Shown here: piece by piece, positions 7,662 to 22,961 of the stretch | Layout of the letters: each line of letters opens with the position of its first letter | Numbering within the stretch: position 1 is the stretch's first letter | DNA from: an uncultured Gammaproteobacteria bacterium | GTDB taxonomy: Bacteria; Patescibacteriota; Microgenomatia; UBA10105; UBA927 | Assembly: GCA_964430295.1 (NCBI GenBank) | Contig: CAYSEV010000004.1 | Coordinates: 1 to 60,820, forward strand | DNA: 60,820 bases | Direction: 5' to 3' | Notes under the pieces: generated by a model | Databases searched by the model: none | Told to the model about the DNA's origin: nothing | The model's input: only the letters and a program-made list of their open reading frames with translations | Made by a program: the position numbers and the translations under genes

Positions 7662-8312
7662 TTATGTGCGGCAATAATAAAAGATGTTTTTATGGTTTGA
7701 TTGCATATCGACCTCTGAAAACAGAGAACGAAGCAGTATCAATAGATCTTGCTTTACCTCTTTTTGATGTGAGTATGAAAAATAGTTAAACATCACACTT
7801 CCACCTGGGCGAAGCAAACGGCTGATATTCACTAAAAAACGTCTGGATCCCACAAAATCCGGAACAGTATTCCCTATGTAGAGATCCACAACAACACAAT
7901 CATATCGGCCATTCAATGTAGAATTTTTTACAAATGATTTTGCATCAGCTATACGATACGTTGTTCGGGAAATGTTTCCAATATCAAAATATGTTTTTGC
8001 CACATGAAGAATCTCTGCATCTATATCTACGCCTGTGATATGGGCTTTACTGTAGAATGTACGAAGCAGACGGAATACATCTCCTCCACCTATCCCAAAC
8101 ACCAGAATGCGACGCATTGGTCCCTGATGCCATGTATATAATCGTTTTACACCGGATCGAAACAGTAGTTGAGGATATCTGCCGCTTTGCGTAATGCCGT
8201 TTACAAGCAGTTTTCTGTTACCAAACGTCTCCACCACTTCAATGACGTCACTGAATATAGATGACCCAGTGTAGAGCTGCCGCTTCATAAGAAACGTGAG
8301 CCAATCCATCAT
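7662..8312 (-). CDS. spermidine-synthase-like SAM-dependent methyltransferase-fold protein
   Basis: 216-aa ORF with VFGIGGGDV (motif I), TGVDIDAEIL and VVVDLY, typical of the spermine/spermidine synthase-like fold. Confidence 0.55.
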   Translation of the reverse strand: MMDWLTFLMKRQLYTGSSIFSDVIEVVETFGNRKLLVNGITQSGRYPQLLFRSGVKRLYTWHQGPMRRILVFGIGGGDVFRLLRTFYSKAHITGVDIDAEILHVAKTYFDIGNISRTTYRIADAKSFVKNSTLNGRYDCVVVDLYIGNTVPDFVGSRRFLVNISRLLRPGGSVMFNYFSYSHQKEVKQDLLILLRSLFSEVDMQSNHKNIFYYCRT

Positions 8313-8330
8313 AGTAGGTACGACTATACT

Positions 8331-9578
8331 CTACCGTCGTATTTCGGTTTTCCCAATAAGTGGTTGTAGAACTTTTGGTACTTTGATTGATCCATCTTTT
8401 TGCTGATAATTTTCCAAGATAGCGATCAAAATTCTTGGAGACGCGATAGCCGTATTATTCAGTGTATGGCAAAATTGTGTTGATCCATCTTTGGCTTTAT
8501 ATCGGATTTTAAGCCTGCGTGCCTGAAAATCTCCCATGATTGAGTTTGACATCGTTTCACCATACGCATTTCTTCCGGGCATCCATGTCTCTATGTCGTA
8601 CTTTTTCACCTGTGGCTCACCCATGTCACCTGTGCACATCAAAAGTACCCGATATGGTAATTCCAGATCTTTCAATACTTCTTCAGAGTTTTGCAGTAAC
8701 TCCTCATGAAGAGTAATAGAATTGTTCATATCGTTTGTTGAGATAATTACCTGTTCGATTTTACTGAATTGATGCAGTCTATAAACCCCTTTTGTATCTT
8801 TACCATAACTTCCGGCTTCACGACGAAAACAGGGTGAAAACGCAACAAATTTTTTGGGTAAATCTTTTTCCTGAAGCACCTCATCACTGAAATACGCTGT
8901 TACAGGAACTTCCGCGGTACCTGCCAGATACTCATCATCTTTTTCCAAATGATACACTTCTTCACGTCCCCACGGGAACTGTCCGTTTCCAAACAAGGTA
9001 AACTCCCGCACTAAACTGGGAGCTATGAGAGGTGTATACCCTTTTCCAATGAGTTTTTGAAATGTATAAAATAATACTGCAAATTCCATTTGTGCAGCTT
9101 CGTTTTTCAAAAAATATGCCCGTGAACCACCTACTTTTGCACCACGATCAAGATCAATAAGATCCAACGATTTTGCCAGATCTATATGATCACGGATAGG
9201 AAAATCAAATTTCGTCGGTTCTCCCCATGTTTTGATTTGCACATTCTCTGATTCGTCCTTGCCGATCGGAACTGAGGGGTCAGGAACATTCGGGACAGTG
9301 TACATTGCCATTTGAAATTTCTCTTCAACTGTACGCAGCTCATCTTCTAATTCCTTCAGCCCTTCTTTGAGCTTTTTCCCCTCTTCACGGACGGCAGGGT
9401 CTTTACCATCTCCTTTGAGCGTATTGCGTTTTGCGCGAAGTACTTCCGATTTTCCAATTAATTCCCGTCGTTTTTCATCTAATGCTAAGAGCGCATCCCA
9501 ATCTACAACACGATTTTTGTTTTTTGCTGCTTCTTTACAAGCTTCTAAATTTTCACGAATAAATTTTATATCTAACAT
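8331..9578 (-). CDS. serS: seryl-tRNA synthetase
   Basis: N-terminal coiled-coil arm plus class II core (FRREAGS, TLNNTAIASPR). Start placed at the ATG at 9578, preceded by AGAGGAGG. The track ORF begins at an upstream GTG. Confidence 0.95.
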   Translation of the reverse strand: MLDIKFIRENLEACKEAAKNKNRVVDWDALLALDEKRRELIGKSEVLRAKRNTLKGDGKDPAVREEGKKLKEGLKELEDELRTVEEKFQMAMYTVPNVPDPSVPIGKDESENVQIKTWGEPTKFDFPIRDHIDLAKSLDLIDLDRGAKVGGSRAYFLKNEAAQMEFAVLFYTFQKLIGKGYTPLIAPSLVREFTLFGNGQFPWGREEVYHLEKDDEYLAGTAEVPVTAYFSDEVLQEKDLPKKFVAFSPCFRREAGSYGKDTKGVYRLHQFSKIEQVIISTNDMNNSITLHEELLQNSEEVLKDLELPYRVLLMCTGDMGEPQVKKYDIETWMPGRNAYGETMSNSIMGDFQARRLKIRYKAKDGSTQFCHTLNNTAIASPRILIAILENYQQKDGSIKVPKVLQPLIGKTEIRR

Positions 9579-9753
9579 ACTGCCTCCTCTTAGAAACACG
9601 TATTTTTTTTACAAAAAATACTAGTGCTTCTTAGATCCTCCGTAGCTTCAGGCAAAGAAGGATAAAACATTAATACGATCCACCGACGCCAAGGCTATGG
9701 TGGATTTATGGTTTCTAGACTCGTGAATATGAATTCACTTGTCAAGCAACCAT

Positions 9754-9780
9754 AAAAAAAACACGCAATACTCTTGCGTG
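9754..9780 (-). terminator. intrinsic terminator (7-bp stem CACGCAA/TTGCGTG followed by T8 on the minus strand)
   Basis: Plus strand reads AAAAAAAA-CACGCAA-TACTC-TTGCGTG. On the minus strand the hairpin is followed by eight T. It lies about 155 nt downstream of the rdgB stop. Confidence 0.7.
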
Positions 9781-9935
9781 TTACGGCCCTTCGACAAGCT
9801 CAGGGAGATGCCACCATAACTTATACTCAATTTCGGGATATAACGGTCCCAACCGTCCCGATTTTTTACCTCGGGATGCTCGACTGTTGGAAGCAGTCTG
9901 CCAGCGCATTTATGTTATTGTATACCTTTGAAGAG

Positions 9936-10570: not shown

Positions 10571-11212
10571 ATGTACATGAAACGATTTGTTACATGCTTT
10601 GCTATTATCTCTCCGTATCTTTTTTTGATGCTCTATCTCGTTATTGGGACACTGACACCTGGATACAATCACTTCAAACATACGATTAGTAGATTATCTA
10701 TCGGCCAATATGGATTTTGGCAGTCACTAAATATTGTGCAATTTTCTATAGGAATCATATCCTTAATTTATGTAAGTAGGTTACGTATTCGATCAAAAAA
10801 AACTGCCACTCAATTGTCAAATATGCTTGGCGGTGTAGCATTAACGCTATTATTGATTGCCATTTTCCCGACAGACCCTATAGATGCATTCCCCAAATCG
10901 ATCTTTAGTATTTCGTGGAGAGCACTTGCGCATTTTGGTGTTCTGGTATTGTTTATACTCTGCACACCTATCCTTGTAAAACGGCTGTACGAAGCATTTA
11001 GGCAGGATACGGCACTGAATAAGCTTGCTCCAATCACACTGACATGCGGTATTGCTATGTTTACCTTGAGTATCCTTTGGTTTCTCTTTTTTTATTTTGG
11101 CATGTTCAACGAATACAGAGGACTATTTCAGAAAAGCATGGCAGCAATTGTTTTATACTGGATTGCGACTATCACCCGCAACGTAATGGCACTACCAAAT
11201 AAAAACTGTTAG
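10571..11212 (+). CDS. DUF998-like integral membrane protein
   Basis: 213-aa ORF with about six hydrophobic helices. The family is recalled from overall pattern only. The start may be the ATG at 10577 (MKRF...), 6 nt after a TATACT box. Confidence 0.4.
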   Translation: MYMKRFVTCFAIISPYLFLMLYLVIGTLTPGYNHFKHTISRLSIGQYGFWQSLNIVQFSIGIISLIYVSRLRIRSKKTATQLSNMLGGVALTLLLIAIFPTDPIDAFPKSIFSISWRALAHFGVLVLFILCTPILVKRLYEAFRQDTALNKLAPITLTCGIAMFTLSILWFLFFYFGMFNEYRGLFQKSMAAIVLYWIATITRNVMALPNKNC

Positions 11213-13278
11213 AGACCTAACTCTGCGTGCTTTGCCTGCATAGCATGAAGTGTGAGTTCTATAAATTCCGAAAGAGGAATCCCCAACTTTTCTTCACATT
11301 GTGCAATATGATCGCGATCAACAGGTTTGGCAAATTCTTTGGTTTTCCATTTTTTCATTACAGATGAAAGCTCGACTGTCTCCAGTTTTTTATCCGGTCT
11401 TACAAGCGCCACTGCCACAATAAAACCTGTAAGCTCATCTACTGTTTCAAGAGCCCATTCCATCACAGAGTCAATTTCTGCAAGTTTTGTGAGTTTTCTG
11501 TTATGTGATTGAAGGGCCTTTACGAGCGGGCCTTTTGTAATTCCCATGTCTGATAGCCACTGAAGTGTTTTCTTTGTATGCTCTTCAGGTGCATCTTTTG
11601 TTTCCTCCCAATCGGCATCATGAAGAATGCCCAATACTTCCCATACATCTGCATTACCACCCAATTTCTCCGCCAATGATCGCATTGCATACCCGACAGC
11701 ATAACAGTGTCGGCGCAGGTTTTCATTTTGCATATGAGCGTGCAGCAATTCCATAGCCTGCGTCTTACTCACTATGTCTTGTGCATCTACAGTATGTTCA
11801 GTTATCAGTGCTTTTTCCTTTTTCTGAAATTCCGGTCGAAGCGTCGGGAATAAAATGACATCTTTAAGCGATGCCTGATCGGCAAGGATAGATACCAAAC
11901 GGTCTATACCCATACCCCACCCTGCTGTTGGTGGCATGCCGTATTCCAGTGCACGGATATAATCATAATCAAATGCTTCGTGTTCATCCTGCCCTTCTTC
12001 ACCCAATTTTTCTGATTCTCTCCATCGCATTGACTGATCCTCAGGGTCATTGAGCTCGTTATAGGCATTAATCACTTCTTTTCCAGCAATCAAGAGTTGG
12101 AATGAAGCTGTTTTATGCGGATCGTTTGGTAATCTTTTAGCAAGCGTCACAAATGCCGTTGGCCGATCTGTCAGAAACATTGGCCCTACCAGATGCGGCC
12201 GCGCTGTTGCCTTGTATAAGGAATCTAGTATAGCTCCATATCCGACTACACCCGTGAGATCCAACTGAATTTTTTTAGACTTTATTTCAGCAAGAAGTTG
12301 TTCTTCCGTGAGGGCGACATTTATATCTATACCGGTAAATTCCATAACTACATCCCGATATGATTTTCTTTCCCACTTGCCGGAGAAGTCGATCATCTCA
12401 CCCTGATAGGTAATCGTTGAGCTGCCACAGACTTCTGTTACCAAATTGGCAATCATTTTTTCTGTATAGTTCATAAGCTGTTCGTAATTTGCATACGCCC
12501 AGTAGAACTCCATCATGGTAAATTCAGGATTATGCTGACGGTCTATTCCTTCGTTTCGAAAATCCTTTGAAATTTCATAAACTTTTTCAAATCCACCGGC
12601 AATCAGTCGTTTCAGATACAGTTCGTCCGAGATGCGCAGATACAAATCAGCATCCAATGCATTATGGTGGGTAACAAACGGTTTCGCCGATGCACCACCG
12701 TAAATTGGTTGGAGAACCGGAGTTTCCACTTCTAGAAAACCGTCATGATCAAAATAATTTCGAAGAAATCGGACAACTTTGGTGCGAAGTAAAAATACTT
12801 CACGAACCCCTGGATTTACAACCAGATCTACATAGCGTTGTCTGTAGCGTTCTTCTACATCTTTCAGCCCATGCCACTTGTCGGGTAACGGACGAATAGA
12901 TTTAGATAACAAGCGTATGCGAGTTGCAAATACAGAACACTCACCTGCCTGTGTGGTTCCTATAGAACCTTCTACCTCTATAAAATCCCCCATATCAAGA
13001 AAGGATACAAGGGAAAACGAATCCGTATCCAGTGCATCCTGTTTTAATACGGCCTGAATTTTGCCGGAGAGATCAACAACATCGCAAAACACGATCTTTC
13101 CATGTCCACGCATGGCCATGATCCGACCGGTTACTATGACGGTTTTATCCGTCATGTCCCGTGCTTCTGCTATGGTCTGTGTACGACCGGAGACGGATGG
13201 ATACGGGTCTATCCCCCGCTTTTTGAGTTCTACCAGTTTTTGCTTTCTTGTTTCAATTAGTTCTTCTAGTGTTGGCAT
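11209..13278 (-). CDS. lysS: class II lysyl-tRNA synthetase fused to a C-terminal HD-domain hydrolase
   Basis: 689-aa ORF. Residues 1 to ~485 are an OB anticodon-binding domain plus class II core (FRNEG, GMGIDRL, ILFPTLRPE). Residues ~500-689 carry HD-domain signatures (RRHCYAVGYAM...GILHDADWE). There is no stop or frameshift between the two parts. Confidence 0.9.
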   Translation of the reverse strand: MPTLEELIETRKQKLVELKKRGIDPYPSVSGRTQTIAEARDMTDKTVIVTGRIMAMRGHGKIVFCDVVDLSGKIQAVLKQDALDTDSFSLVSFLDMGDFIEVEGSIGTTQAGECSVFATRIRLLSKSIRPLPDKWHGLKDVEERYRQRYVDLVVNPGVREVFLLRTKVVRFLRNYFDHDGFLEVETPVLQPIYGGASAKPFVTHHNALDADLYLRISDELYLKRLIAGGFEKVYEISKDFRNEGIDRQHNPEFTMMEFYWAYANYEQLMNYTEKMIANLVTEVCGSSTITYQGEMIDFSGKWERKSYRDVVMEFTGIDINVALTEEQLLAEIKSKKIQLDLTGVVGYGAILDSLYKATARPHLVGPMFLTDRPTAFVTLAKRLPNDPHKTASFQLLIAGKEVINAYNELNDPEDQSMRWRESEKLGEEGQDEHEAFDYDYIRALEYGMPPTAGWGMGIDRLVSILADQASLKDVILFPTLRPEFQKKEKALITEHTVDAQDIVSKTQAMELLHAHMQNENLRRHCYAVGYAMRSLAEKLGGNADVWEVLGILHDADWEETKDAPEEHTKKTLQWLSDMGITKGPLVKALQSHNRKLTKLAEIDSVMEWALETVDELTGFIVAVALVRPDKKLETVELSSVMKKWKTKEFAKPVDRDHIAQCEEKLGIPLSEFIELTLHAMQAKHAELGL

Positions 13279-13361
13279 AGTAGTATTTTAACACAACCCC
13301 GTTGAGTCGGGATTGATGGGACTGTAAACTCGCACATACGCATGTGCTCGTTACCATCCAT

Positions 13362-13390
13362 CAAAAAATCCCGCTTTCGCGGGATATTTT
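13362..13390 (-). terminator. intrinsic terminator downstream of greA
   Basis: AAAAAA-ATCCCGC-TTTC-GCGGGAT-ATTTT. The 7-bp GC-rich stem is followed by T6 on the minus strand, 20 nt after the greA stop. Confidence 0.8.
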
Positions 13391-13409
13391 GATTATATAT
13401 ATTGTTTTT

Positions 13410-13874
13410 TTACTGAATCTCTAGGACTTTGTAGAGCACTTTTCCCGCAGGTGCTGCTACTTCCACTTTTTCCCCGACTTTTTTGCCTATAAGGGCTTTA
13501 CCAAGTGGAGATGAGTGGGATATCTTTTTTTCCATCGGATTTGCTTCCCATTCACCGACCAGATGAAAGGTTTCTTTTTTGTTACCGATCGTAACTGTTA
13601 CTTTACAGCCGACATCTACCTGTGACTTACCATGAGATGTCACAACCTTTGCATTGTGCATGATTTCTTCCAGTTCGATGATTCTGCCATCTATAAATGA
13701 CAAATCTGTCTTTGCTGCTGCGTATTCACTATTTTCTGATAAATCACCTGCTTCGCGTGCAGATGCAAGACGCGTCACAGCTTCCGGTCTTTTGGTATTG
13801 ACCAGTTCTTCGTGTTCACGCTTTAACTCTGCCAAGCCTTCAGGCGTTAGTACAATTTTGTTTTGTATATCCAT
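13410..13874 (-). CDS. greA: transcription elongation factor GreA
   Basis: 154-aa ORF with an N-terminal coiled coil carrying the acidic tip (DLSENSEY) and a C-terminal FKBP-like domain. GGAGG lies upstream. Confidence 0.93.
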   Translation of the reverse strand: MDIQNKIVLTPEGLAELKREHEELVNTKRPEAVTRLASAREAGDLSENSEYAAAKTDLSFIDGRIIELEEIMHNAKVVTSHGKSQVDVGCKVTVTIGNKKETFHLVGEWEANPMEKKISHSSPLGKALIGKKVGEKVEVAAPAGKVLYKVLEIQ

Positions 13875-14106
13875 ATGCTCAAAAAAAACCTCCCCAATCT
13901 ACCATGCAAGGAAAAAAAGGGAGCAGTTGATAAATACTTTGTACGTTACCGTACGTTTGTTATTTTAATCTTTTTGCCTTGTTATGTCAATAGTAAACTG
14001 ATACAATTCTCTGTACAGATATACAAATTTAGCCTCAAAATTGCGTTAAGATATTTACTACAGGTTATAATCTGAAGCTATTTTTTGTATAATACTGAAA
14101 GCTATT

Positions 14107-14180
14107 GCCCCTATCGTCTAGCGGCCTAGGACGGTGCGTTCTCATCGCACAAATCGCCGGTTCGAATCCGGCTAGGGGTA
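14107..14180 (+). tRNA. tRNA-Glu (anticodon CUC), CCA not encoded
   Basis: Folded by hand. Acceptor GCCCCTA/TAGGGGT (G1-U72 wobble), D-arm GTCT-AGCGGCCTA-GGAC as in tRNA-Glu, anticodon stem GTGCG/CGCAC with loop TTCTCAT, and T-arm GCCGG-TTCGAAT-CCGGC. TATAAT boxes sit at 14066-14071 and 14088-14093 upstream. Confidence 0.9.
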
Positions 14181-14181
14181 C

Positions 14182-14310
14182 AAATAAAAAGATCCCGCTT
14201 TAAGAGGGATCTTTTTGTTTATATCCCCTCCCGAAGAGCCGTTGCAGCATGTGCGGTTCGTAATGCCCATATACATCGGCATTGTTATTCATCCGGCCAG
14301 GGGGGTACAA
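14182..14310 (+). repeat. repeat unit A: tRNA downstream flank ending in a pseudo tRNA 3' end (TTCATCCGGCCAGGGGGGTACAA)
   Basis: Aligns by eye with 14589-14705. Its last 23 nt mimic the tRNA T-arm/acceptor 3' end (TTCGAATCCGGCTAGGGGTACAA). Confidence 0.7.
14186..14217 (+). terminator. intrinsic terminator after tRNA-Glu
   Basis: AAAAA-GATCCC-GCTTTAAGA-GGGATC-TTTTT. Confidence 0.75.
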
Positions 14311-14317
14311 TTGAATT

Positions 14318-14545
14318 ATGAAAAAAATAACTCTGATATTGTTAATAATAACCTTATCTCCAATTATTATTATGAATATCTTACCCGGTCACTTTGACTA
14401 TGTGTGTTGTGGTGTTGGTTATGTAAATAATGCAAATAGAATAGCTTGCATCGCAACAAATTTTTGCGATCATAATTCAATTCTTTCGCCAAATATTGTT
14501 GAAAAAATTTTATTGTTTTCTGCAAAATTTGACTTAACTAAATAG
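14318..14545 (+). CDS. hypothetical small secreted/membrane peptide with four Cys
   Basis: 75-aa ORF with a hydrophobic N-terminus (MKKITLILLIITLSPIIIM) followed by HFDYVCCGVGY...CIATNFC. It lies between repeat units A and B. No homolog recognised. Confidence 0.35.
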   Translation: MKKITLILLIITLSPIIIMNILPGHFDYVCCGVGYVNNANRIACIATNFCDHNSILSPNIVEKILLFSAKFDLTK

Positions 14546-14588
14546 CAAACCGTATAAAAACGTTCCTATAATTGCTCAACATGTGTAT

Positions 14589-14705
14589 AAATAAAAATTC
14601 CGCTTTAAACGGGTTTTTTGTTTATTACCCAACCAAGAGAATCGCCACACGGTTTGTAGCACACTCAATATATTTGCACTGTTATTAATCAGGCTAGGGT
14701 GAGAG
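14589..14705 (+). repeat. repeat unit B: second copy of the tRNA downstream flank plus pseudo 3' end
   Basis: AAATAAAAATTCCGCTTTAAACGGGTTTTTTGTTTAT ... CACTGTTATTAATCAGGCTAGGGTGAGAG parallels unit A at roughly 70 percent identity, judged by eye. Confidence 0.65.
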
Positions 14706-14862
14706 TTCTATAAGCATTTAAATTTGAAACTAATTCTTTACAAAAGAATACATAATAAATAATTCAAAATATCTTTTGATATTGATTTCACCCATTATTA
14801 GGAATGGAAGATACGATTTTAGAGTCTTTTATATGCTATAAACTTCTGTTATACCAATATCA

Positions 14863-15687
14863 ATGAGCAGATATCGGCATAGCAAATATTCACTTTCATA
14901 CATTATATTCTTATTTACGCTTGCATTATTCTCATCAGTCTTATCAGGCAACAAAACTATAATTCAGAGCGCTACAAAAGCTCTTTTACCAATCATTTAT
15001 ATTCTTGGTTTAATACTAATTATTAAACATCTTTATAACATATTCAAAGAATACCAATTATCTAAAACTGACATATATGATATTGATAGAATGTCTGGTA
15101 CAGAATTCGAACAAAGATTAATTATCTTATACAGAAACCTTGGATATAAAGTAACTCATATAGGACATTCTGGAGATGCGGGAGTAGATTTGATCGTGGA
15201 AAAAGATGGAATTAAAACTGCTGTACAAGCAAAAAGATACAAAGGAAACGTTCCAGAATCAGCGGTGCAACAAGTACATACAGGAAAAGATTATTACAAA
15301 TGCGATAGAGCTATCATCGTAACAAATAGTTTTTTTACCCAGATGGCACAGAATGTAGCAGCCAAAACAAATATTACACTCTGGAATAGAAACACTCTTA
15401 TAAAAGAACTTCTAGAAGAACATGACACATTAACGTTTAAAACAGTCGTTACAAATTCAAATCATACAAATAATATCCAACAAACTGTACCAACCGATAG
15501 ACCAAAAGCAACAAAAGAATTAATACAATATATTAGAGATTGTATTCATAAAGGCGAAACATGGACTGGTATAAAATCTAGAATGCTTAAAATTGGATGG
15601 TCAGAGGAAGCATTAAACGATGGATTCTTTCAATATTATAATAATCTTGGAACAGCCGAATCATATGAAACTAAAAAATTCCTATAA
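14863..15687 (+). CDS. membrane-anchored Mrr-cat (type IV restriction endonuclease-like) domain protein
   Basis: 274-aa ORF with two N-terminal TM helices, then GTEFEQRLIILYRNLGYKV...GDAGVDLIVEKDG...AVQAKRY...AIIVTNSFFT, which matches the Mrr_cat D-(D/E)xK pattern. A ~90-aa C-terminal extension is of unknown type. Confidence 0.75.
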   Translation: MSRYRHSKYSLSYIIFLFTLALFSSVLSGNKTIIQSATKALLPIIYILGLILIIKHLYNIFKEYQLSKTDIYDIDRMSGTEFEQRLIILYRNLGYKVTHIGHSGDAGVDLIVEKDGIKTAVQAKRYKGNVPESAVQQVHTGKDYYKCDRAIIVTNSFFTQMAQNVAAKTNITLWNRNTLIKELLEEHDTLTFKTVVTNSNHTNNIQQTVPTDRPKATKELIQYIRDCIHKGETWTGIKSRMLKIGWSEEALNDGFFQYYNNLGTAESYETKKFL

Positions 15688-15737
15688 CATATCAACAGAG
15701 TACTAAATAAATTCGATAAAAGTATATACTATAAAAT

Positions 15738-16037
15738 TTAAAATAATTTCCTTAACTCACCATAAAGTTCTATTACACCAATAATGAATACAACAGAGAA
15801 TAATACACGTGTTAACCAGGAATGTATCAGATTTGACGTGGATCGCTCTGGTAAAAATTTAAAATATTTTAACGGCACAAGGATTGGAAATAATATTATA
15901 TTTAACCCAGGATGATTAAAATAAGACAATTTAGGGTATTTTTTTAATATATTTTCAATATTTTTTTGAGGGAAAAATGCAAAAAATCCCCCAATTACTA
16001 TAAATAATATATAAAATATTGAACTTTCGATATCCAC
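15738..16037 (-). CDS. hypothetical small membrane protein (about 3 TM)
   Basis: 99-aa ORF convergent with the Mrr-like gene. It is strongly hydrophobic, with no recognised family. Confidence 0.4.
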   Translation of the reverse strand: MDIESSIFYILFIVIGGFFAFFPQKNIENILKKYPKLSYFNHPGLNIILFPILVPLKYFKFLPERSTSNLIHSWLTRVLFSVVFIIGVIELYGELRKLF

Positions 16038-16086
16038 AAAACCATTATAGAAGAAAAATGTCTCATTTCAAATTATTTCAGAAATG

Positions 16087-16112
16087 ATATATCCGAATTT
16101 CGTAAGCACTAG
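16087..16112 (+). repeat. repeat C: decayed tRNA-3'-like segment (ATATATCCGAATTTCGTAAGCACTAG)
   Basis: Shares ATAT(A)TCC-N4-TTCGTAAGCA with 16715-16738. Confidence 0.5.
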
Positions 16113-16177
16113 TTTATTTGATAAAAATAAAACCAAAAATAAAATTTAATTTACTAGTAATAGTATATAATTAATCT

Positions 16178-16699
16178 ATGTTTGAAAAAATTATAAACAC
16201 TGCTGGAGGGTGGATTGAAGGACTAAAGTACCCTAGTGCAAAACGTGAACTTGATACTGTTAAGTATCAATGGTACACAAAACAAAGCAAAACACTTTAT
16301 CCACATGCTCTGAAAGATGATACTGCACCTTATTTTGTAGTACGAGTCACAAATAAAAGCTTAGGAAAAATAGGAATTTATGATTTTCCGTTAAAAGAAG
16401 AGGAACTGAAAGGGTTAATGTCTTTTTATACCGGTAACAATGATAATACTAACATCATCGGCAAAGCTGATAAGTTGCTATTAGGAGCATTTGGAATACG
16501 GTCTGACAAAGAAGTATTTCAATTATCGGATTTTAAATTTAAACTATCTATACAGCATCTAATGGCTTTTAGAAATGATGATCCCGACAGACCATTTGGA
16601 ATAAGATCAACCACTCTATCTCCCAGCGGCATAGATATTCAATATGCGTTTTTTACTCAACACGATATGTCTGTCATTAGTGAAGAGTTAGCAAAATAG
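16178..16699 (+). CDS. hypothetical protein (orphan, soluble)
   Basis: 173-aa ORF with no motif recognised. A TATAAT box at 16166-16171 ends 6 nt before the ATG. Confidence 0.5.
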   Translation: MFEKIINTAGGWIEGLKYPSAKRELDTVKYQWYTKQSKTLYPHALKDDTAPYFVVRVTNKSLGKIGIYDFPLKEEELKGLMSFYTGNNDNTNIIGKADKLLLGAFGIRSDKEVFQLSDFKFKLSIQHLMAFRNDDPDRPFGIRSTTLSPSGIDIQYAFFTQHDMSVISEELAK

Positions 16700-16714
16700 T
16701 CAGCAATATATATT

Positions 16715-16755
16715 ATATTCCATACTTCGTAAGCATTACGGGGCAAATAAAAAGA
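16715..16755 (+). repeat. repeat D: decayed tRNA 3' end plus flank junction (CTTCGTAAGCATTACGGGGCAAATAAAAAGA)
   Basis: GGGG..CAAATAAAAAGA reproduces the genuine junction GGGGTACAAATAAAAAGA at 14175-14192. This is a candidate distal att copy. Confidence 0.6.
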
Positions 16756-16781
16756 ATCATCATTCTGTTCAAGATATCTTT

Positions 16782-17102
16782 TTACTTCTTTTTCTGCATC
16801 TTAGGAAGTGCATCTGCAGTAAAGCGCACAAGTGTCGTCATAAATTCCCGATCATCAAGATTATCTGTCACATTCATAGATGGTTTTGCACCGGGATACG
16901 CATACCCTTCTGAATATCTTCCTACTGCATATTGTTTTCCCGCGTCTGTATATTTTATATACAGCTGATCATCACAGATAAGCCCAACTACTTTGTTATC
17001 ACAGTAGAGTGCATACTCTCCGAACATTTTTCGAACCCGAATATCTCCCAGATCTTGAAGCTGCTCACAAATGTAATCTGCCGTTGTCTGATCTGTAGAC
17101 AT
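16782..17102 (-). CDS. TfoX N-terminal domain protein
   Basis: 106-aa ORF. MFGEYALYCDNKVVGLICDDQLYIK is typical of the TfoX_N domain. Confidence 0.65.
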   Translation of the reverse strand: MSTDQTTADYICEQLQDLGDIRVRKMFGEYALYCDNKVVGLICDDQLYIKYTDAGKQYAVGRYSEGYAYPGAKPSMNVTDNLDDREFMTTLVRFTADALPKMQKKK

Positions 17103-17110
17103 AGTGTGTG

Positions 17111-18679
17111 TTATGCATTTTCTTTTTTATCTGTTGCAACGCGCTTTATAGGAAGTGTAAACATAAACGTTGATCCTGTACCAACAGTACTTTCAACACT
17201 TATTTTCCCACCCAAGCGTTCAACTATAAGTTTACAGATGTACAGTCCTAGACCTGTTCCTTCCTGCGATCTGGATAATGATGGTTCTAACTGAGAAAAT
17301 TTATTAAATAGTCTGTGAATTGATTCCGGAGGAATACCCTGTCCATGATCAGAGACTTTCACTATAACCATATCATCCGGTTCATCGTGAGTAACTTGTA
17401 CGGTAATTTCCTGATTTTCAGGGCCATATTTTACCGCATTATCCACTAGATTGATGATCACTTCAGAGATCTGAGCTTTATCTGTCTCTATGTGAATGTC
17501 GTCAGGAGGTAAACTCATTTGAAGGGTATACTTTTTTTTCTGATTCAATGTCTGAAGCTCCGGGATCAGTGACTGAAAGAATGTGTTTACGGAAACCGGT
17601 TCTAAATGAATGATATCTTTACCGCTTTCAAAACGTGTTACTGTCAGGATTCGCTTCACTACATTTTTCAGACGTATACCCTCTTCAAAAATGATAGCAG
17701 GATATGCGGAAACAGATTCAGGAATTTCTGACTTTTTACTCTTCATTAAATCGCTCAAAGCTATAATGGAAGTCAGTGGTGTCTTTAATTCATGGGCTAC
17801 AATATTTAAAAATTCGTCCTTTAACTGATCCAGTTGTTTGAGATGGAAGATATCTATTTCTGCTTTTTTCAAGTCACTGATATCTTCTCCTGTACATAAA
17901 TATGACTGTACTGTTCCAGTCTTGTCTTTGATTGCTGTACTTCCCCACGTAATAAATTTTGGTTTTCCTGTTTTTGTAACAAGCGAATACTCAAAATACG
18001 CACTTTCACCTTTTGGATTTGTAACACTCTCCAAAAAAATATCAAGCGTATAATTTTTATTTTTTGCCAGGACATCTGTGATCCAATTTTTCCCTATCAG
18101 TTCACCATCATGATATTCAAGAAGTACATGCCCCCGATTATTTAAATAAAGGATTTTTCCTTTTTTATCTATAACAAGTACAATTCTGCCAATAACTTCA
18201 AAATATTTCTCGAGTGTTTGTTTTTCCTGCCGCAACTGATGTTCAACTTTTTTCCGTTCTGTAATTTCATGTATGAACCAAATTCTGCCAATAGGATGAT
18301 TTTCTTCATCTAATAATGGGGTACAATAAAAGTCTATGTATCTCCCATCAGCACATTCAACTTCAAATTTATTTTTCGCATCTGCTGTATCTGAAATGCG
18401 AGAAATATGTTCACGAAATTTCTCCGGATGAAGCATGAGGGGCTGAAAAGACACCAATATGTTCAGTTGTTGAGCAGGTACATCACTGTGAAGCAGCAGA
18501 TGCCACAATTTATGAAATGTATCATTTGTAAAAATGATACGACCATCGGTATCTTCAATAAGTATCCCTTCCGGAGAATACTTAAGTGCAGATAATAATG
18601 GACCTTGTAAATTACCACACGAAACACTATCAACGAGCGTCTTATGTTCACCGGTATTATTGGAGGATGCAATAGACAT
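17111..18679 (-). CDS. cytoplasmic PAS-domain sensor histidine kinase
   Basis: 522-aa ORF with no TM. Two PAS-like segments are followed by the H-box AHELKTPLT, the N box DNAVKYG, and G boxes DHGQGI and GTGLGL. Confidence 0.9.
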   Translation of the reverse strand: MSIASSNNTGEHKTLVDSVSCGNLQGPLLSALKYSPEGILIEDTDGRIIFTNDTFHKLWHLLLHSDVPAQQLNILVSFQPLMLHPEKFREHISRISDTADAKNKFEVECADGRYIDFYCTPLLDEENHPIGRIWFIHEITERKKVEHQLRQEKQTLEKYFEVIGRIVLVIDKKGKILYLNNRGHVLLEYHDGELIGKNWITDVLAKNKNYTLDIFLESVTNPKGESAYFEYSLVTKTGKPKFITWGSTAIKDKTGTVQSYLCTGEDISDLKKAEIDIFHLKQLDQLKDEFLNIVAHELKTPLTSIIALSDLMKSKKSEIPESVSAYPAIIFEEGIRLKNVVKRILTVTRFESGKDIIHLEPVSVNTFFQSLIPELQTLNQKKKYTLQMSLPPDDIHIETDKAQISEVIINLVDNAVKYGPENQEITVQVTHDEPDDMVIVKVSDHGQGIPPESIHRLFNKFSQLEPSLSRSQEGTGLGLYICKLIVERLGGKISVESTVGTGSTFMFTLPIKRVATDKKENA

Positions 18680-18702
18680 ATATACTAGACAATTTGCCCA
18701 CG

Positions 18703-19092
18703 CTACACAGTCCTAATACTTGCATTCACTTTTGCGATTAAATCATCAACAGTAAAAGGCTTTTCAAGAACATTCGCAATCAGTTTTAATTCAGAAAACT
18801 CTTTTAATGATGCTTGAAATTCCTGAGATAATACAGGAAGTGCTGAGATAAGCAACACCGGAATCTTTTTCAGCTGATCATCTGTCATCATGACTTTGCA
18901 GACATCTATCCCGCTCATTTCGGGCATCATGATGTCCAGGATAAGAAGATTAAATAGGTCCCCTACTGCCATTTTCTGTAATCCTTCTTTTCCGCTATGT
19001 GCAATTTCAACCTGATAATCCGTTTTTGTAACAATAACGGCTTTTATTGTCTCAACTGTATTACTATCGTTATCTACAATAAGTATTCGCAT
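18703..19092 (-). CDS. single-domain (CheY-like) response regulator
   Basis: 129-aa ORF containing a receiver domain only (VDND..., LLILDIMMP, ...SALP). Confidence 0.85.
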   Translation of the reverse strand: MRILIVDNDSNTVETIKAVIVTKTDYQVEIAHSGKEGLQKMAVGDLFNLLILDIMMPEMSGIDVCKVMMTDDQLKKIPVLLISALPVLSQEFQASLKEFSELKLIANVLEKPFTVDDLIAKVNASIRTV

Positions 19093-19118
19093 GCTTATTC
19101 CTCCTTCGTGTATTCCTG

Positions 19119-20507
19119 CTATTTTTTATGAAAATACTTTTCTAGTGATGTTAAATTTTCGTTAACAGATTCGGCGTCTCCAATTTTTTTATCTTTAACA
19201 TATTGCTCCACTTTTATTTTTCTTTTAAACACATTCTTATATCGTATATATAAGACAGCTACTACTTCCGATGGGTCCTTGGTAATAGATATGATCCTAC
19301 CATTTTTTTTGTCTACTACCAAACCTGCCACAGCATCAGCCAGTGCATATGCACGATCTCCTATAGAATCATGCATTTGTGTAATCATATCATCTATAAT
19401 TTCGTAGTATACACGTTCCGCAGGGGGGATCTTTGCGTACTTATCTTTATTTTTCTTATATATATAGAACGCATAGGAACATGCTGCTGTCATGAATATG
19501 AAGAATATCCATTTCAATGCTAAGAAGATTCTGCTGACGAATATTCCAAGCACCTTCGGTTCAACTATAATCTGAAACTTCATCGCTTCTGCAAATACTT
19601 GATCTCCACGCAATACGTTTGCGGAGATTGTGTACTCTCCGGGCTTGTAATCAACCGGTATTTGTATTGATTCATATTCCGTCATAGGATTTACGGTACT
19701 GAGTATACGGGCTTCCTCAACTGCATTCCCATTTATTGCTAGCACGCGATATTGGACAGAAAAATCTGAAGGAGAATAATTGCCATATAACATGAAAGAA
19801 ATTGGTAGTAATACGGACTCACCCGGAGCAGCATGTACACTGATAGATTTTTTATTTGTGGACACCAAAAGAGATGTATTAGCAGCATTTGCTGATACGG
19901 CCTTCGTATAACAGATACGCATCCGAATATTGTTTACATACCCCACTATTGTTTTTGGTGAACTCTCTATATTCTGTTGCCGCTCCTTAACATCAACTGT
20001 AATACTGACGATACTGGCATCTATAGGAATATGAAATCCAAAATCAGAAGCGCGTAGAAATTGACTTGTGACGATACCGTTCCCAACCTGCAAGGCAAAT
20101 CCAAAATCAGGATTATTCACATCTGACGCGTTAATATTGTTTTTCCATGCATCATTGTCGTATCTTACAAATGCAGCATTCGTCGGCAATGGATTGTTGT
20201 GAGCTGCATTAGCAGCACTTATATTTCCACCAGGAAGCAAAAGTCTGGCAGCTACATCTTTTAATTCTGAGGTCGAGTGCATATCTACATCTGATTCGGC
20301 CAGATCATCTGCAGATATATAATATGTGTTATTCCATTGTGCATTTCCGGGAGCAGATTGTCCCTGCACACGAGGAGAAACAGACTGTTCACATACCCTT
20401 GTTAACGTTTCCTGTGATAATACTGTAACACTGTCCGCATGCACAGGCCATGGAATGCTACAAAACAAAATGCATCCAATTGCAATATTTTTATATACGT
20501 GTTTCAT
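19119..20507 (-). CDS. hypothetical bitopic surface protein
   Basis: 462-aa ORF with a signal peptide, a ~300-aa external region ending in an Ig-like beta-rich stretch, one TM (IFLALKWIFFIFMTAACSYAFYIY) and a ~110-aa cytoplasmic tail. It is the first gene of the RR-HK string. Confidence 0.6.
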   Translation of the reverse strand: MKHVYKNIAIGCILFCSIPWPVHADSVTVLSQETLTRVCEQSVSPRVQGQSAPGNAQWNNTYYISADDLAESDVDMHSTSELKDVAARLLLPGGNISAANAAHNNPLPTNAAFVRYDNDAWKNNINASDVNNPDFGFALQVGNGIVTSQFLRASDFGFHIPIDASIVSITVDVKERQQNIESSPKTIVGYVNNIRMRICYTKAVSANAANTSLLVSTNKKSISVHAAPGESVLLPISFMLYGNYSPSDFSVQYRVLAINGNAVEEARILSTVNPMTEYESIQIPVDYKPGEYTISANVLRGDQVFAEAMKFQIIVEPKVLGIFVSRIFLALKWIFFIFMTAACSYAFYIYKKNKDKYAKIPPAERVYYEIIDDMITQMHDSIGDRAYALADAVAGLVVDKKNGRIISITKDPSEVVAVLYIRYKNVFKRKIKVEQYVKDKKIGDAESVNENLTSLEKYFHKK

Positions 20508-20741
20508 AGCATATCACTATCAATACAGCTAGTATGACATGTATGGAAAAACAATCAAGAGAATCTGTCTCTGTTGCCTATTTTTTTATACATCTGACAC
20601 ACATGCATGTTCGATCTTCACAAAATTTATAAATAAAATTCATAGAAATCAAAGACGTGATACTATATAGATACAGAAAGGAGACATTGTAGGTATCTAC
20701 AATACATCTGTATTTAAGGAAAATCTACAACAATAAACACT

Positions 20742-20939
20742 ATGACAGGCACCGTGAAAACAAAAACAGATCGAGGATTTGGATTTATCAGCCGTGAGGG
20801 TGAAGCGAAAGATTTATTCTTTCATTCAAAAGAATTGAATGGAGTAACATTTGACGAACTTCAGGTTGGCGCAACTGTAACATTTGATGTTGCTGATGGA
20901 GAAAAAGGTCCATTTGCAAAAAATGTGAAACTCGCGTAA
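20742..20939 (+). CDS. cold-shock domain protein
   Basis: 65-aa ORF with RNP1-like GFGFI and RNP2-like FFH motifs. A ~200-nt 5' leader precedes it. Confidence 0.92.
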   Translation: MTGTVKTKTDRGFGFISREGEAKDLFFHSKELNGVTFDELQVGATVTFDVADGEKGPFAKNVKLA

Positions 20940-20958
20940 ATGTTACGTCGATTTGTAT

Positions 20959-20987
20959 AAAAAGCCCTACATTCTGTGGGGCTTTTT
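20959..20987. terminator. bidirectional intrinsic terminator between csp and the convergent 92-aa ORF
   Basis: AAAAGCCCTAC-ATTCT-GTGGGGCTTTTT, with A-run and T-run flanks. Confidence 0.75.
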
Positions 20988-21264
20988 AGTGTATAGAAGA
21001 GGTGAGCTTCTGAGCAATATCATCTATGGCTTTTGCCCATTTCACCCGATCGGATAAGCCAGCGTTATATTCTTTTTCCAACCGGTCGTACTGCTTACAA
21101 CATGTTGAAAAGATTGCAGAAAACGCCGGGTTCAGTGGAAACGTCAACAATGCGTTTATATTTTTACGGATAAGCCCAATAAATAAGTCTATTCGCTTTT
21201 GTTCCTGTGGAAAACTTTTTCTGGTCCATTCACTCACCTGAACAAGATTCTCTACGGTATCCAA
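20986..21264 (-). CDS. hypothetical helical protein
   Basis: 92-aa ORF with no recognisable motif. Confidence 0.4.
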   Translation of the reverse strand: MDTVENLVQVSEWTRKSFPQEQKRIDLFIGLIRKNINALLTFPLNPAFSAIFSTCCKQYDRLEKEYNAGLSDRVKWAKAIDDIAQKLTSSIH

Positions 21265-21338
21265 TACGAGATCCCGCTGGTTTTTTTCCGAAAAATTGCT
21301 GGCAGAATTATGTTGTATTATGTTCGTAGTATACCATT

Positions 21339-21389
21339 TTCTATAAGATATTTATAGAATCAAATATGCCTATCAGTACGTGATATAAT
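21339..21389 (+). promoter_or_regulatory. 8-5-8 inverted repeat TTCTATAA-GATAT-TTATAGAA plus extended -10 (TGATATAAT) upstream of pdxS
   Basis: Perfect palindrome at 21339-21359. TGaTATAAT at 21381-21389. There is no Shine-Dalgarno sequence before the ATG at 21393/21399. Confidence 0.45.
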
Positions 21390-21392
21390 AGA

Positions 21393-22289
21393 ATGTATAT
21401 GAAAACTCAAGGAACCCCTACAATAAAAAAAGGACTCGCGCAAATGTTAAAAGGTGGCGTCATTATGGACGTCGTGAATGCCAAACAGGCGGAAATCGCC
21501 GAAAAAGCTGGTGCAGTGGCTGTTATGGCACTGGAACGTGTTCCCTCTGATATCCGTGCTGATGGCGGAGTTGCTCGCATGAGTGATCCATCTAAAATAA
21601 AAGAAATTCAGGCAGCCGTAACAATTCCTGTTATGGCAAAATGCCGTATTGGACATTTTGTAGAAGCACAGGTATTGGAAGCACTTGGTGTAGATTTTAT
21701 AGATGAAAGTGAGGTGCTCACACCCGCAGATGAACAATTCCACATAGATAAATCTCCATTCACTGTTCCCTTTGTCTGCGGATCCCGTGATCTTGGAGAA
21801 GCGCTCCGTCGAATTCAGGAAGGCGCAGCTATGATTCGGACAAAAGGTGAAGCGGGATCAGGTAATATTGTTGAAGCGGTTCGACACATCCGTACGGTAC
21901 AAACAGGGATACATGAACTCGTTTCTCTGTTGGCAAAAAAGCAGACAGCAAAATTAAAAAATCTTGCGGTACAATATCGCGTTTCATACGATCTTGTAAT
22001 AAAAACTGCCACGCTTGGACGGCTCCCGGTAGTCAACTTTGCTGCAGGTGGTGTTGCAACACCCTCCGATGCAGCACTGTGTATGCAGCTTGGCGTGGAC
22101 GGTGTTTTTGTAGGATCCGGAATTTTCAAAAGTAGTAATCCAGAAAAATATGCACGTGCGGTTGTCGATGCCGTTGCACATTATACAGATGCAAAGGAAA
22201 TCGCCCGCGTCAGTGAAAACTTGGGAGGGGCGATGAAAGGCCTCGAAATCTCGACACTGGAAACAAAAATGGCATCACGAGGTATATAA
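21393..22289 (+). CDS. pdxS: pyridoxal 5'-phosphate synthase lyase subunit PdxS
   Basis: 298-aa ORF with highly conserved PdxS sequence ([20 protein letters not shown]-like, [20 protein letters not shown]-like). The start may be the ATG at 21399. Confidence 0.97.
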
Positions 22290-22294
22290 CCTAT

Positions 22295-22891
22295 ATGACA
22301 TTGCCTATTGGTGTTCTCTCTTTTCATGGAGATGTCGTGGAACATATAGAAGCGACGCAAGAAGCTGCAAAGAAATTGAAGGTCGCAGCACGAGTAATTC
22401 CTGTTCGAACAAAAGAAGTACTTAGAACTGTAACTGCTCTTATTATCCCCGGCGGTGAAAGTACTACACTGCATAAGCTCTGTGTACGAGAACAGATGTG
22501 GGACGATATGAAAACGTTGCCTTATATATTTGGTACCTGTGCCGGCGCAATTATGCTTGCTGACGATGTGCGTCATAAAGCAGAAGGTCAAGACACACTG
22601 AGGCGCATGCATATATCCATAGACAGAAATGCATACGGCAGACAGACTGATTCATTTGAAGAGCCACTCGAAACAGAACTTGGGACGGTTTCCGCAGTGT
22701 ATATCCGTGCACCAAAAATTCTACAGGTGAAAAGAGGCGTACACATATTAGCCAAACGAGGCGTTGATATCTTGGCGTGTGAAGAAACAGGGACAAACAG
22801 GTACAGTATTGCTACATGTTTTCATCCGGAGCTAACCACAACGGTGTTTCATGAGTACTTTATCAAACAGATACAAAAAGGACATAGATAA
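22295..22891 (+). CDS. pdxT: PLP synthase glutaminase subunit PdxT
   Basis: 198-aa ORF with GVLSFHGD, IIPGGESTT, GTCAG (catalytic Cys) and FHPE motifs. Confidence 0.93.
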   Translation: MTLPIGVLSFHGDVVEHIEATQEAAKKLKVAARVIPVRTKEVLRTVTALIIPGGESTTLHKLCVREQMWDDMKTLPYIFGTCAGAIMLADDVRHKAEGQDTLRRMHISIDRNAYGRQTDSFEEPLETELGTVSAVYIRAPKILQVKRGVHILAKRGVDILACEETGTNRYSIATCFHPELTTTVFHEYFIKQIQKGHR

Positions 22892-22961
22892 TTTCAGACA
22901 AAAATCCCCTCACGTGTGATATACTCACAACATTCAATACATGTGATCTAAAAATACCTTC

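Follow-up and report, generated by a model that had tools for sequence, protein, structure and literature searches.

A variable tRNA-Glu locus with tRNA-like modules and a recombinase-less AT-rich block in a Gottesmanbacteria-like bacterium

The tRNA-Glu locus and its AT-rich block

The stretch of DNA analyzed here (contig CAYSEV010000004.1, 60,820 nucleotides, hereafter the window) carries a tRNA-Glu(CTC) gene that is followed on its 3' side by two copies of a terminator-plus-tRNA-like module, termed units 1 and 2, and by an AT-rich block with four short open reading frames (ORFs) (Table 1). The closest matches of the neighboring GreA protein are from metagenome-assembled genomes of Gottesmanbacteria, with 90% and 88% identity among GTDB genomes and up to 94% among Logan assemblies, and the host is a bacterium of the candidate phyla radiation (CPR, Patescibacteria) near Candidatus Gottesmanbacteria. 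The locus was compared with about 50 related loci. The pairing of greA and tRNA-Glu(CTC) is kept in about 45 related loci, and the Beta-lactamase2/lon pair is found next to tRNA-Glu in 20 Gottesmanbacteria loci.

An initial annotation of the window had described the segment 3' of the tRNA as an array of AT-rich cassettes bounded by serial, progressively decayed copies of the tRNA 3' end. The AT-richness, first judged from hand counts, is real, as computed GC content and GC content at third codon positions (GC3) both differ from the rest of the window. The GC content of 14311-16743 is 0.296 compared to 0.398 +/- 0.020 elsewhere (z = -5.2 against non-overlapping windows), the lowest of any 2.4-kb window in the whole 60.8 kb. 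Past the tRNA, the GC profile drops from about 0.40 to 0.26-0.32, and the GC3 of the four block ORFs is 0.20-0.25 compared to 0.316 +/- 0.054 for 47 long ORFs.

The four short ORFs listed by the initial annotation are all present at their positions. The Mrr-like protein is the only one with a recognizable family and is defence-like, with a likeness to the nucleases of ZorD and of type IV restriction enzymes. It matches Mrr_cat (PF04471) with an E value of 8.5e-30 over residues 74-181, and the PADLOC search returned the ZorD Mrr-like nuclease and mREase_IV models; the approximately 70 N-terminal residues are hydrophobic by eye, and no domain was detected in them. About 30 homologs are patchily distributed across phyla, the best with 62% identity. 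A 58%-identical homolog lies about 1 kb from a tRNA-Glu(TTC) on an unrelated contig (L252, positions 118-192 and 1183-1971), where a 104-aa ORF, unrelated in sequence to ORF99, comes next in convergent orientation. The contexts of the Mrr homologs (L252-L254) showed no unit and no conserved ORF99 partner. ORF75 and ORF99 had no match in Pfam, PADLOC, PHROGs or NCBIfam. For ORF173, the sole match among 5.8e9 clusters was itself, and four proteins were found at E <= 1e-3 among 1.84e9 representatives. A tblastn search of 80 GTDB loci using the block ORFs, tfoX and HK as queries identified no homologs of the block, and the tfoX-like gene had no counterpart in any related locus examined. The AGGGGGG run in the 3' copy of unit 1 (14300-14317) is placed 12-13 nt 5' of the start codon of ORF75, for which it may also provide the ribosome-binding site.

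The initial annotation was correct in reporting no integrase in the segment. A Pfam search of the four block ORFs and a scan of all window ORFs of 150 aa or longer detected no recombinase domain, and neither a Phage_integrase-type domain nor intI was present in the window ORFs scanned. Likewise, tblastn with five large serine recombinase (LSR) queries gave no LSR pseudogene or remnant in 14100-23000. A recombinase may be supplied in trans; the window covers only 60.8 kb of the genome.

Table 1. Positions of the features of the tRNA-Glu locus in the window
Feature	Position	Strand	Description
greA	13410-13874	-	Pfam GreA_GreB_N + GreA_GreB; conserved left flank, divergent from tRNA
tRNA-Glu(CTC)	14107-14181	+	ARAGORN; Rfam RF00005, 57.5 bits; last bases ...GGGGTAC
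T1	14182-14220	+	Inverted repeat; A-tract/hairpin/T-tract, intrinsic-terminator-like, directly 3' of tRNA
Unit 1	14222-14308	+	Type-A tRNA-like module; ends CATCCGGCCAGGGGGGTAC, near copy of tRNA 3' end
AT-rich segment 1	14309-14588	+	GC 0.28; holds ORF75; begins exactly at end of unit homology to relatives
ORF75	14318-14545	+	Small Cys-rich protein, hydrophobic N-terminus
T2 + unit 2	14589-14705 (T2 14589-14620; unit 2 14621-14705)	+	Diverged second copy of T1 + unit 1
Mrr-like PD-(D/E)XK nuclease	14863-15687	+	274 aa, hydrophobic N-terminus; Pfam Mrr_cat
ORF99	15738-16037	-	Hydrophobic orphan, strand opposite to other block ORFs
ORF173	16178-16699	+	Near-orphan
Right junction GGGG-C/AAATAAAAAGA	16740-16755	+	Echoes GGGGTAC/AAATAAAAAGA tRNA/flank joint; possibly attR-like; low-GC block ends
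tfoX-like (TfoX_N)	16782-17102	-	GC 0.405, native-like; part of wider variable interval
Hypervariable interval	14182-22961		Units, AT-rich block, tfoX, HK-RR-p462, CSD, SNZ-SNO
Beta-lactamase2-family gene	22962-23903	+	Pfam; conserved right flank
lon	23907-26345	-	Pfam; conserved right flank

Variable 3' flanks and serine recombinase islands in related loci

Across the related loci, the gap between the 5' side of the tRNA and greA is steady at 103-298 nt. The gap between the tRNA 3' end and the Beta-lactamase2-family gene takes values of 32, 93, 104 and 156 nt, 474-805 nt and 1.2-6.7 kb, a range of 32 nt to 6.7 kb in 13 loci other than the window, and it reaches 8780 nt in the window. In five of six loci with an inverted tRNA, variable DNA of 1.5-1.7 kb is found, and it lies on the tRNA 3' side; inversion relative to both greA and the beta-lactamase-like gene was observed in L011, L023, L025, L028, L030, L031 and L244.

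Six close relatives were examined for gene content, five of which carry an identical tRNA (L003, L083, L084, L089 and L090, with GreA identities of 84-92%), while the tRNA-Glu of the sixth (L255, GreA 82%) differs. The 3' flank has a different gene content in each of the six. The slot is occupied by an 8.2-kb island encoding an OLD-like AAA/TOPRIM ATPase together with a helix-turn-helix regulator in L003, by a C5 DNA methylase and unknowns in L083, by DUF3800 and other genes in L084, by Kelch and a 500-aa protein in L090 and by a glyoxalase in L255. Further out, the window has HK-RR-p462 in common with L090 and SNZ-SNO in common with L083, and both loci carry a CSD gene. Exact protein look-ups with GreA and TfoX gave either no match or only the identical contigs L001 and L002, which represent the strain of the window itself and are uninformative on polymorphism.

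In six relatives an LSR gene is present at the junction, which is the tRNA end in L003, L089, L015, L034 and L027 and a unit copy in L084. The L003 and L089 proteins are 520 aa long with Resolvase and Recombinase domains, LSRs are also encoded in L015, L034 and L027, and the 524-aa L084 protein is 27% identical to that of L003. The left joint between tRNA and island in L003 reads ...GGCTAGGGGTAC/TAAATTTG (slashes mark joints), and the island ends 8.2 kb away with ...ATCATCTGGGGTAC/AAGCAAAAAGAC, where the attR TGGGGTAC/AAGCAAAAAGAC is followed by an ortholog of unit 1. As the joints share only about 7 nt, the core is about 7 nt, as expected for serine integrases. Read from the sequence, the GGTTC motif lies 5 bp further from the crossover in the island-side (attP-left) arm than in the tRNA (attB-left) arm. 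The attP and attB sites of LSRs differ by the offset of their zinc-ribbon-domain motifs, and the 5-bp shift matches this known offset. The 3' copy in a unit most likely acts as a secondary attB, because LSR islands are joined after the ...GGGGTAC of either the tRNA or a unit copy. The attR ends of the L015, L034 and L027 islands were not located by similarity to the tRNA end.

The LSR ORFs run antisense across attL into tRNA-Glu (L003 8217-9779, L089 680-2242, L015 approximately 8350-9876 and L034 approximately 8306-9823), with the last approximately 26 residues (…VPLAGFEPAICAMRTHRPRPLDDRG) encoded on the complementary strand of the tRNA. This C-terminal extension is probably incidental to integration, because the tail of the L084 protein is encoded by the antisense strand of the unit instead. 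In L028 (8406-8930), a single 88-aa GIY-YIG nuclease gene (PF01541, 6e-16) stands alone between the tRNA and a downstream 3'-end copy. The T stem of the resident tRNA, GCGAG/CTCGC, is fully compensated and differs from the displaced copy (…AATCCGGC), which suggests replacement of the whole T arm by incoming DNA.

The joining of LSR islands at ...GGGGTAC and the different 3' flank in each close relative identify the 3' side of tRNA-Glu(CTC) as a hypervariable integration hotspot of this Gottesmanbacteria-like lineage. The hotspot proposed in the initial annotation thus stands on comparative support rather than on the repeats from which it was first deduced. As to presence or absence in relatives, the locus proved hypervariable; neither the block itself nor its exact empty site was found in any relative. 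The tRNA 3' terminus is, we believe, an uncommon target for LSRs, and the locus offers a clear case of a Gottesmanbacteria hotspot served by LSRs that target it.

Where the genes in the hotspot can be identified, they are often of defence type. In defence-island hotspots, the same slot between core genes holds different defence-type genes in each genome, and the Mrr-like nuclease in the window, the OLD-like ATPase in L003 and the C5 methylase in L083 fit this pattern. The present slot differs in belonging to a small CPR genome and in being tied to the 3' side of a tRNA and to tRNA-mimic modules. We know of almost nothing documented on the acquisition and turnover of defence genes in the tiny genomes of CPR/Patescibacteria.

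Terminator-plus-tRNA-like modules

The initial annotation had noted that approximately 125 nt following the tRNA recur further downstream. This duplication is real, as 14182-14308 recurs at 14585-14705 with a local alignment score of 42, whereas none of 500 Markov shuffles exceeded 19 (blastn E = 2e-8; alignment of approximately 120 nt). When 14182-14310 was folded, a single long hairpin interrupted by a small internal loop took up the first 39 nt, and the fold z-score of -4.9 applies to the whole 129-nt stretch. A simple terminator scan did not call T1 because its loop exceeds 8 nt. Unit 1 is composed of an acceptor-like closing stem and two hairpins, P1 (GAGCCG...CGGTTC) and P2 (AATGCC...GGCATT). 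Unit 2 is AT-shifted with its stems mostly lost (fold z = -0.4), and its identity to unit 1 is about 0.66, which makes it as diverged as the units of other genomes (0.59-0.66 identity). An nhmmer profile detected unit 1 (E = 1e-20) and unit 2 (E = 6e-15) and nothing else in the window.

Orthologs of the first module are present in relatives. In L003, T1 and the unit 1 ortholog follow to the right of the island end, as a terminator and then ...CGGTTCGGAGCGCC...GGCGTTGTTACTCATCCGGCTAGGGGGAC. In L084, the tRNA is directly followed by the orthologous module, and it is at the ...CATCCGGCTAGGGGTAC of this module, not at the tRNA, that the LSR island begins. Unit 1 is thus ancestral and common to L003 and L084, and the first tRNA look-alike is not a scar of the AT-rich DNA, because its orthologs are found in both of these loci. 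The view that the look-alikes are serial scars of repeated integration is not sustained.

At least a dozen loci (including L013, L023, L025, L031, L037, L041, L042, L084 and L244) have one to three tandem modules following tRNA-Glu, and every module has its own terminator. The last bases of each module copy the tRNA 3' end of its own genome exactly or nearly so, for example the 17-mers AATCCGGCTAGGGGTAC or AATCCCACTGGGGGTAC. The upstream part of each module contains xCGGTTCG, corresponding to the 5' strand of the T stem and the first four bases of the T loop, which also tracks the host (TCGG in L041). As both of these parts track the host tRNA, a module resembles the 3' third of a tRNA carrying a hairpin insert of 27-85 nt (TTCG-insert-AATCC). 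The inserts fall into at least three types, namely A, found in this window, B, and C, seen in L013.

Covariation supports the predicted structures. The six type-B sequences have 30 predicted pairs, 95.5% of them paired, and 13 pairs have changed on both sides compared to 5.5 +/- 1.6 in shuffles (0 of 500) and 1-2 in slid controls. The P2 hairpin of type A contains three compensatory pairs. Minimum free energy folds of window unit 1 and of the L084 unit are closed and tRNA-like, with an 8-bp acceptor-like stem (UAUCCCCU paired with AGGGGGGUA) and two hairpins. The 5'-3' closing stem recurs in ten units that are not all independent (combined p of 2e-5 using 1000 random 22-mers per locus), and a number of the stems depend on G.U pairs, an indication of a sense-strand RNA. 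The fold contains no D or anticodon arms, and ARAGORN did not call the units as tRNAs. With the Rfam tRNA model, a search of 13800-17200 at E <= 10 recovered the genuine tRNA and no unit, and Rfam 15 identified only tRNA in the window segment, in L037 1-1200 (E <= 10) and in six loci at the gathering score. We found no prior description of this module family or of its use as alternative insertion points in CPR bacteria, and the tRNA-mimic modules, with covarying stems and without an Rfam family, appear to be the new part of this locus.

Three other identities for the units were considered and rejected. A resemblance to hammerhead ribozymes (CUGGUGAG plus a hairpin) and one to domain V of group II introns (GAGCCG...CGGTTC) were dismissed, as the positions or lengths of the core elements did not fit by inspection and Rfam found neither. 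Plain attR scars of tyrosine integrases that target the T loop do not suffice as an explanation, because the T arm stays uninterrupted in scars of that kind and the units have 27-85 nt inserted between TTCG and AATCC. In viral contigs, short unit motifs gave chance matches only, and the gapped type-A and type-B patterns gave 0 matches, so that there is no evidence for units as phage attP sites. A metagenome scan gave 0 matches to the exact tRNA 47-mer and 12 matches to the type-A pattern, of which only L244 was genuine.

The arrangement of modules varies between loci. L023 and L030 (tRNA at 8206 and 8402, respectively) have the same tRNA and the same downstream ORF and differ by about 200 nt, a stretch made up of a whole unit, a further terminator and a P1-like fragment, with no terminator after the tRNA in L030. 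This pair shows presence/absence variation of modules, though not in the form of a clean unit-sized indel. In L031, a copy of the type-B core (P2 + GGTGAGTG + P3; 8098-8173) lies 5' of the tRNA (8230-8304), with a D-arm-like CGCTAGCGGCC after it. In L005 (3718-3920), tRNA-Glu(CTC) was called twice in tandem at a spacing of 52 nt; the second call shares all of the sequence between about position 8 and its 3' end and precedes a scaffold gap (a run of N).

That tRNA genes serve as integration sites and that integration leaves partial tRNA copies is well known (van der Gulik et al. 2023, PMC9897764, citing Reiter et al. 1989 and Williams 2002). The present locus resembles such hotspots in having foreign DNA at an intact tRNA 3' end, downstream copies of the 3' part and content that varies among relatives. 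However, it differs in three respects. The relatives have LSRs and a 7-nt core here, where tyrosine integrases and an identity block of 17-60 nt are found there; the copies of the tRNA end are housed in conserved, structured, ORF-less modules and not at island ends; and a hairpin insert splits the T-arm copy, an outcome not produced by ordinary attL/attR scars.

The structured tRNA-mimic modules can stand in for the tRNA as an insertion point. A more far-reaching proposal, which we regard as speculative and rather unlikely, is that the modules represent a new CPR element and function as tRNA-like small RNAs or else as miniature integrative elements without ORFs that undergo tandem multiplication, in both cases providing extra landing pads for LSR islands and letting recombinase-less cargo accrue without damage to the tRNA, an integron-like platform achieved by tRNA mimicry. 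If the modules were expressed tRNA-like RNAs or mobile mini-elements, they would constitute a new class of RNA or element and a simple marker for acquired DNA in CPR metagenome bins.

Origin of the AT-rich block

The look-alikes of the tRNA 3' end that the initial annotation quoted are all present as strings, and they fared differently against shuffled sequence. The first two are significant as parts of the duplicated module. At 16099, TTCGTAAGCACTAG is not above chance as a tRNA copy, and the same is true for the left half of the string at 16725-16755, of which only the right part is marginal. Aligning the tRNA 3' end with 14711-16800 gave a score of 7, which equals the shuffle mean, and 430 of 500 shuffles were equally good. 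The proposed pair 16087-16112 and 16715-16738 scored 15, a value reached by 108 of 1000 shuffles, and many other 44-nt windows in the block have internal matches at least as good. The idea of progressive degradation through five serial copies fails because the 16099 match, the left part of the 16725 string and the 16087/16715 pair are at chance level. The right part of the last string, GGGG-CAAATAAAAAGA (16740-16755), matches the tRNA/flank junction with a score of 13, equaled by 8-10 of 500 shuffles (p of approximately 0.02). The 12-mer CAAATAAAAAGA occurs in the whole window at 14181 and 16744 only, and GC recovery begins exactly at this joint, whose tRNA-derived part alone is not above chance. 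Of the four look-alikes, two are thus real, one is a marginal joint and one is a match by chance. A further string within the Mrr gene, CTGCTGTACAAGCAAAAAGA (15218-15237), agrees with the attR joint of L003 at 17 of 20 positions and was rejected as chance, since 45 of 500 shuffles reach this value.

Two of four look-alikes at chance level, together with the richness of CPR genomes in orphan genes, would also suit a reading in which ordinary AT-rich, lineage-specific genes happen to stand beside a local tandem duplication 3' of the tRNA. The comparative data already disfavor this reading, and we consider it highly improbable, given the compositional outlier (z = -5.2), the gap range of 32 nt to 8.8 kb with LSR islands at the same junction and a unit family conserved across genera with covariation.

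The boundaries of the block would fit a site-specific entry. The units of the window, L084 and L003 are homologous as far as ...GGGG(G)TAC, which places the boundary between 14308 and 14309, and the GC content falls there from 0.54 to 0.28. This left breakpoint coincides with the LSR junction core and lies 127 nt past the tRNA, after T1 and unit 1. The right end, between 16744 and 16745, echoes the joint of tRNA and T1 and resembles the L003 attR joint TGGGGTAC/AAGCAAAAAGA. On balance, we favor the interpretation that 14309-16744 is recently acquired, recombinase-less foreign DNA that entered by site-specific recombination at the 3' copies of units. In the ancestor, tRNA-T1-unit 1, possibly extended by T2-unit 2, would have led up to a terminator that begins with AAATAAAAAGA and is common to the convergent tfoX. 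The AT-rich foreign DNA would have been inserted at the 3' copy of unit 1, either once, bringing T2-unit 2 from the donor, or twice, at units 1 and 2, through the same kind of site-specific event as the LSR islands of relatives. The recombinase gene may never have been present, as for a passenger served in trans, or may have been deleted later. Both the LSR-type route of entry and the number of events are inferred.

Several observations weigh against this interpretation. Neither a recombinase gene nor a pseudogene was found in the block or the window, and neither end of the block showed significant similarity to the att arms of the L003 LSR element. The right joint, marginal as it is (p of approximately 0.02), lacks the TA of GGGGTAC, and the putative joint before T2 (TGTGTAT/AAATAAAAA) fits GGGGTAC at four of seven positions. 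No relative was found with this block or with the exact empty site, which would read unit 1 ...CCAGGGGGGTAC/AAATAAAAAGAATCATC T3, the tfoX terminator. In addition, homologous recombination through the conserved flanks could give the same picture.

This last route leads to a less probable, although still tenable, alternative in which the block was imported from the tRNA-Glu locus of an AT-richer relative by homologous or illegitimate recombination anchored in the tRNA, terminator and unit sequences. Unit 2 would then be the module of the donor, and the units would be native tRNA-like RNA genes unrelated to insertion. The AT shift of unit 2 agrees with this alternative, as does its distance from unit 1 (0.66), which is as large as that of units from other genomes (0.59-0.66). 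The missing recombinase or pseudogene and the lack of significant LSR att-arm similarity at the block ends agree with it as well, and L083, L090 and L255 have variable content with no recombinase within 10 kb. Many bacterial hotspots of horizontal gene transfer are without integrases. However, the left breakpoint equals the LSR junction to the base (L084, L003 and L089), the right joint repeats the tRNA/flank junction, and no donor-like locus was found, all of which favor site-specific entry over import through the flanks.

Fewer insertions can be argued for than first proposed. The count of at least three cassettes fails because the 16099 boundary is at chance level, and two unit-delimited segments are arguable at most. 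The suggestion of an integron-type array could be recast as a platform on which the tRNA-mimic units act as structured sites similar to attC or attI, and a recombinase encoded elsewhere shuffles small or promoterless cassettes. The structured units with covarying stems, their tandem arrays of 1-3, at least one unit copy that serves as an insertion point (L084), the single-gene GIY-YIG insert between tRNA and 3' copy in L028 and the position of both AT-rich segments after a unit would all be in keeping with such a platform. It is nevertheless improbable. No intI-like or other recombinase was found in the window, ORF99 is antisense, neither the 16099 nor the 16715 boundary rises above chance, segment 2 carries three genes, and most unit arrays in relatives are ORF-less with nothing between units; moreover, the G.U pairs of the closing stems suggest a sense-strand RNA and not a folded DNA site. 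The integron-type reading itself is not supported, as intI was not found, ORF99 lies on the opposite strand and a homologous structured site is not present at each ORF end. The likeness to integron arrays is superficial, consisting of short ORF segments between structured repeats with no recombinase inside the array. In contrast to integrons, the locus has no intI, attI or cassette promoter (Pc), its repeats are derived from tRNA and not attC, its ORFs are of mixed orientation, and it has only two homologous repeats and one segment with three genes.

The block can be compared with other recombinase-less DNA at integration sites. In the SCCmec and pseudo-SCC (staphylococcal cassette chromosome) elements of staphylococci, the Ccr LSRs insert DNA at the 3' end of rlmH (orfX), giving tandem att-bounded elements, some of which lack ccr and are served in trans. 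This accumulation at the rlmH 3' end is the closest mechanistic counterpart. The two differ in that the target here is a tRNA gene or its mimic in a CPR host, that the block is only putatively mobile, and that the serial att copies form part of structured modules resembling tRNA. The cis-mobilizable elements (CIMEs) at the att sites of ICESt1 and ICESt3 are att-bounded and recombinase-less, having arisen by accretion and loss of the recombination module, and similarly place recombinase-less DNA beside an integration site. CIMEs depend on a tyrosine integrase and have clear att repeats at both ends, whereas the right repeat is marginal here and the recombinase class of the relatives is serine. 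Overall, the feature described in the initial annotation is best regarded as an islet of an ordinary kind, without a recombinase and located in a tRNA hotspot; of the four repeat claims, two are unsupported.

Variation was also observed on the other side of the tRNA. A gene at 11209-13278, like greA divergent from tRNA-Glu, encodes a lysyl-tRNA synthetase with a fused C-terminal HD domain (lysS-HD, 689 aa). In relatives, HD is a separate gene, or a class I lysS (L090, tRNA-synt_1f) is accompanied by a separate HD gene, and the lysS-HD version of L256 is 841 aa long with an additional DUF2000. The interval between greA and lysS (13279-13409) forms a second variable spot, as several close relatives have a 353-aa unknown protein and a histone-deacetylase-family gene there (compared with L003, L084, L087 and L089), and greA and lysS are adjacent in the window, L083 and L086.

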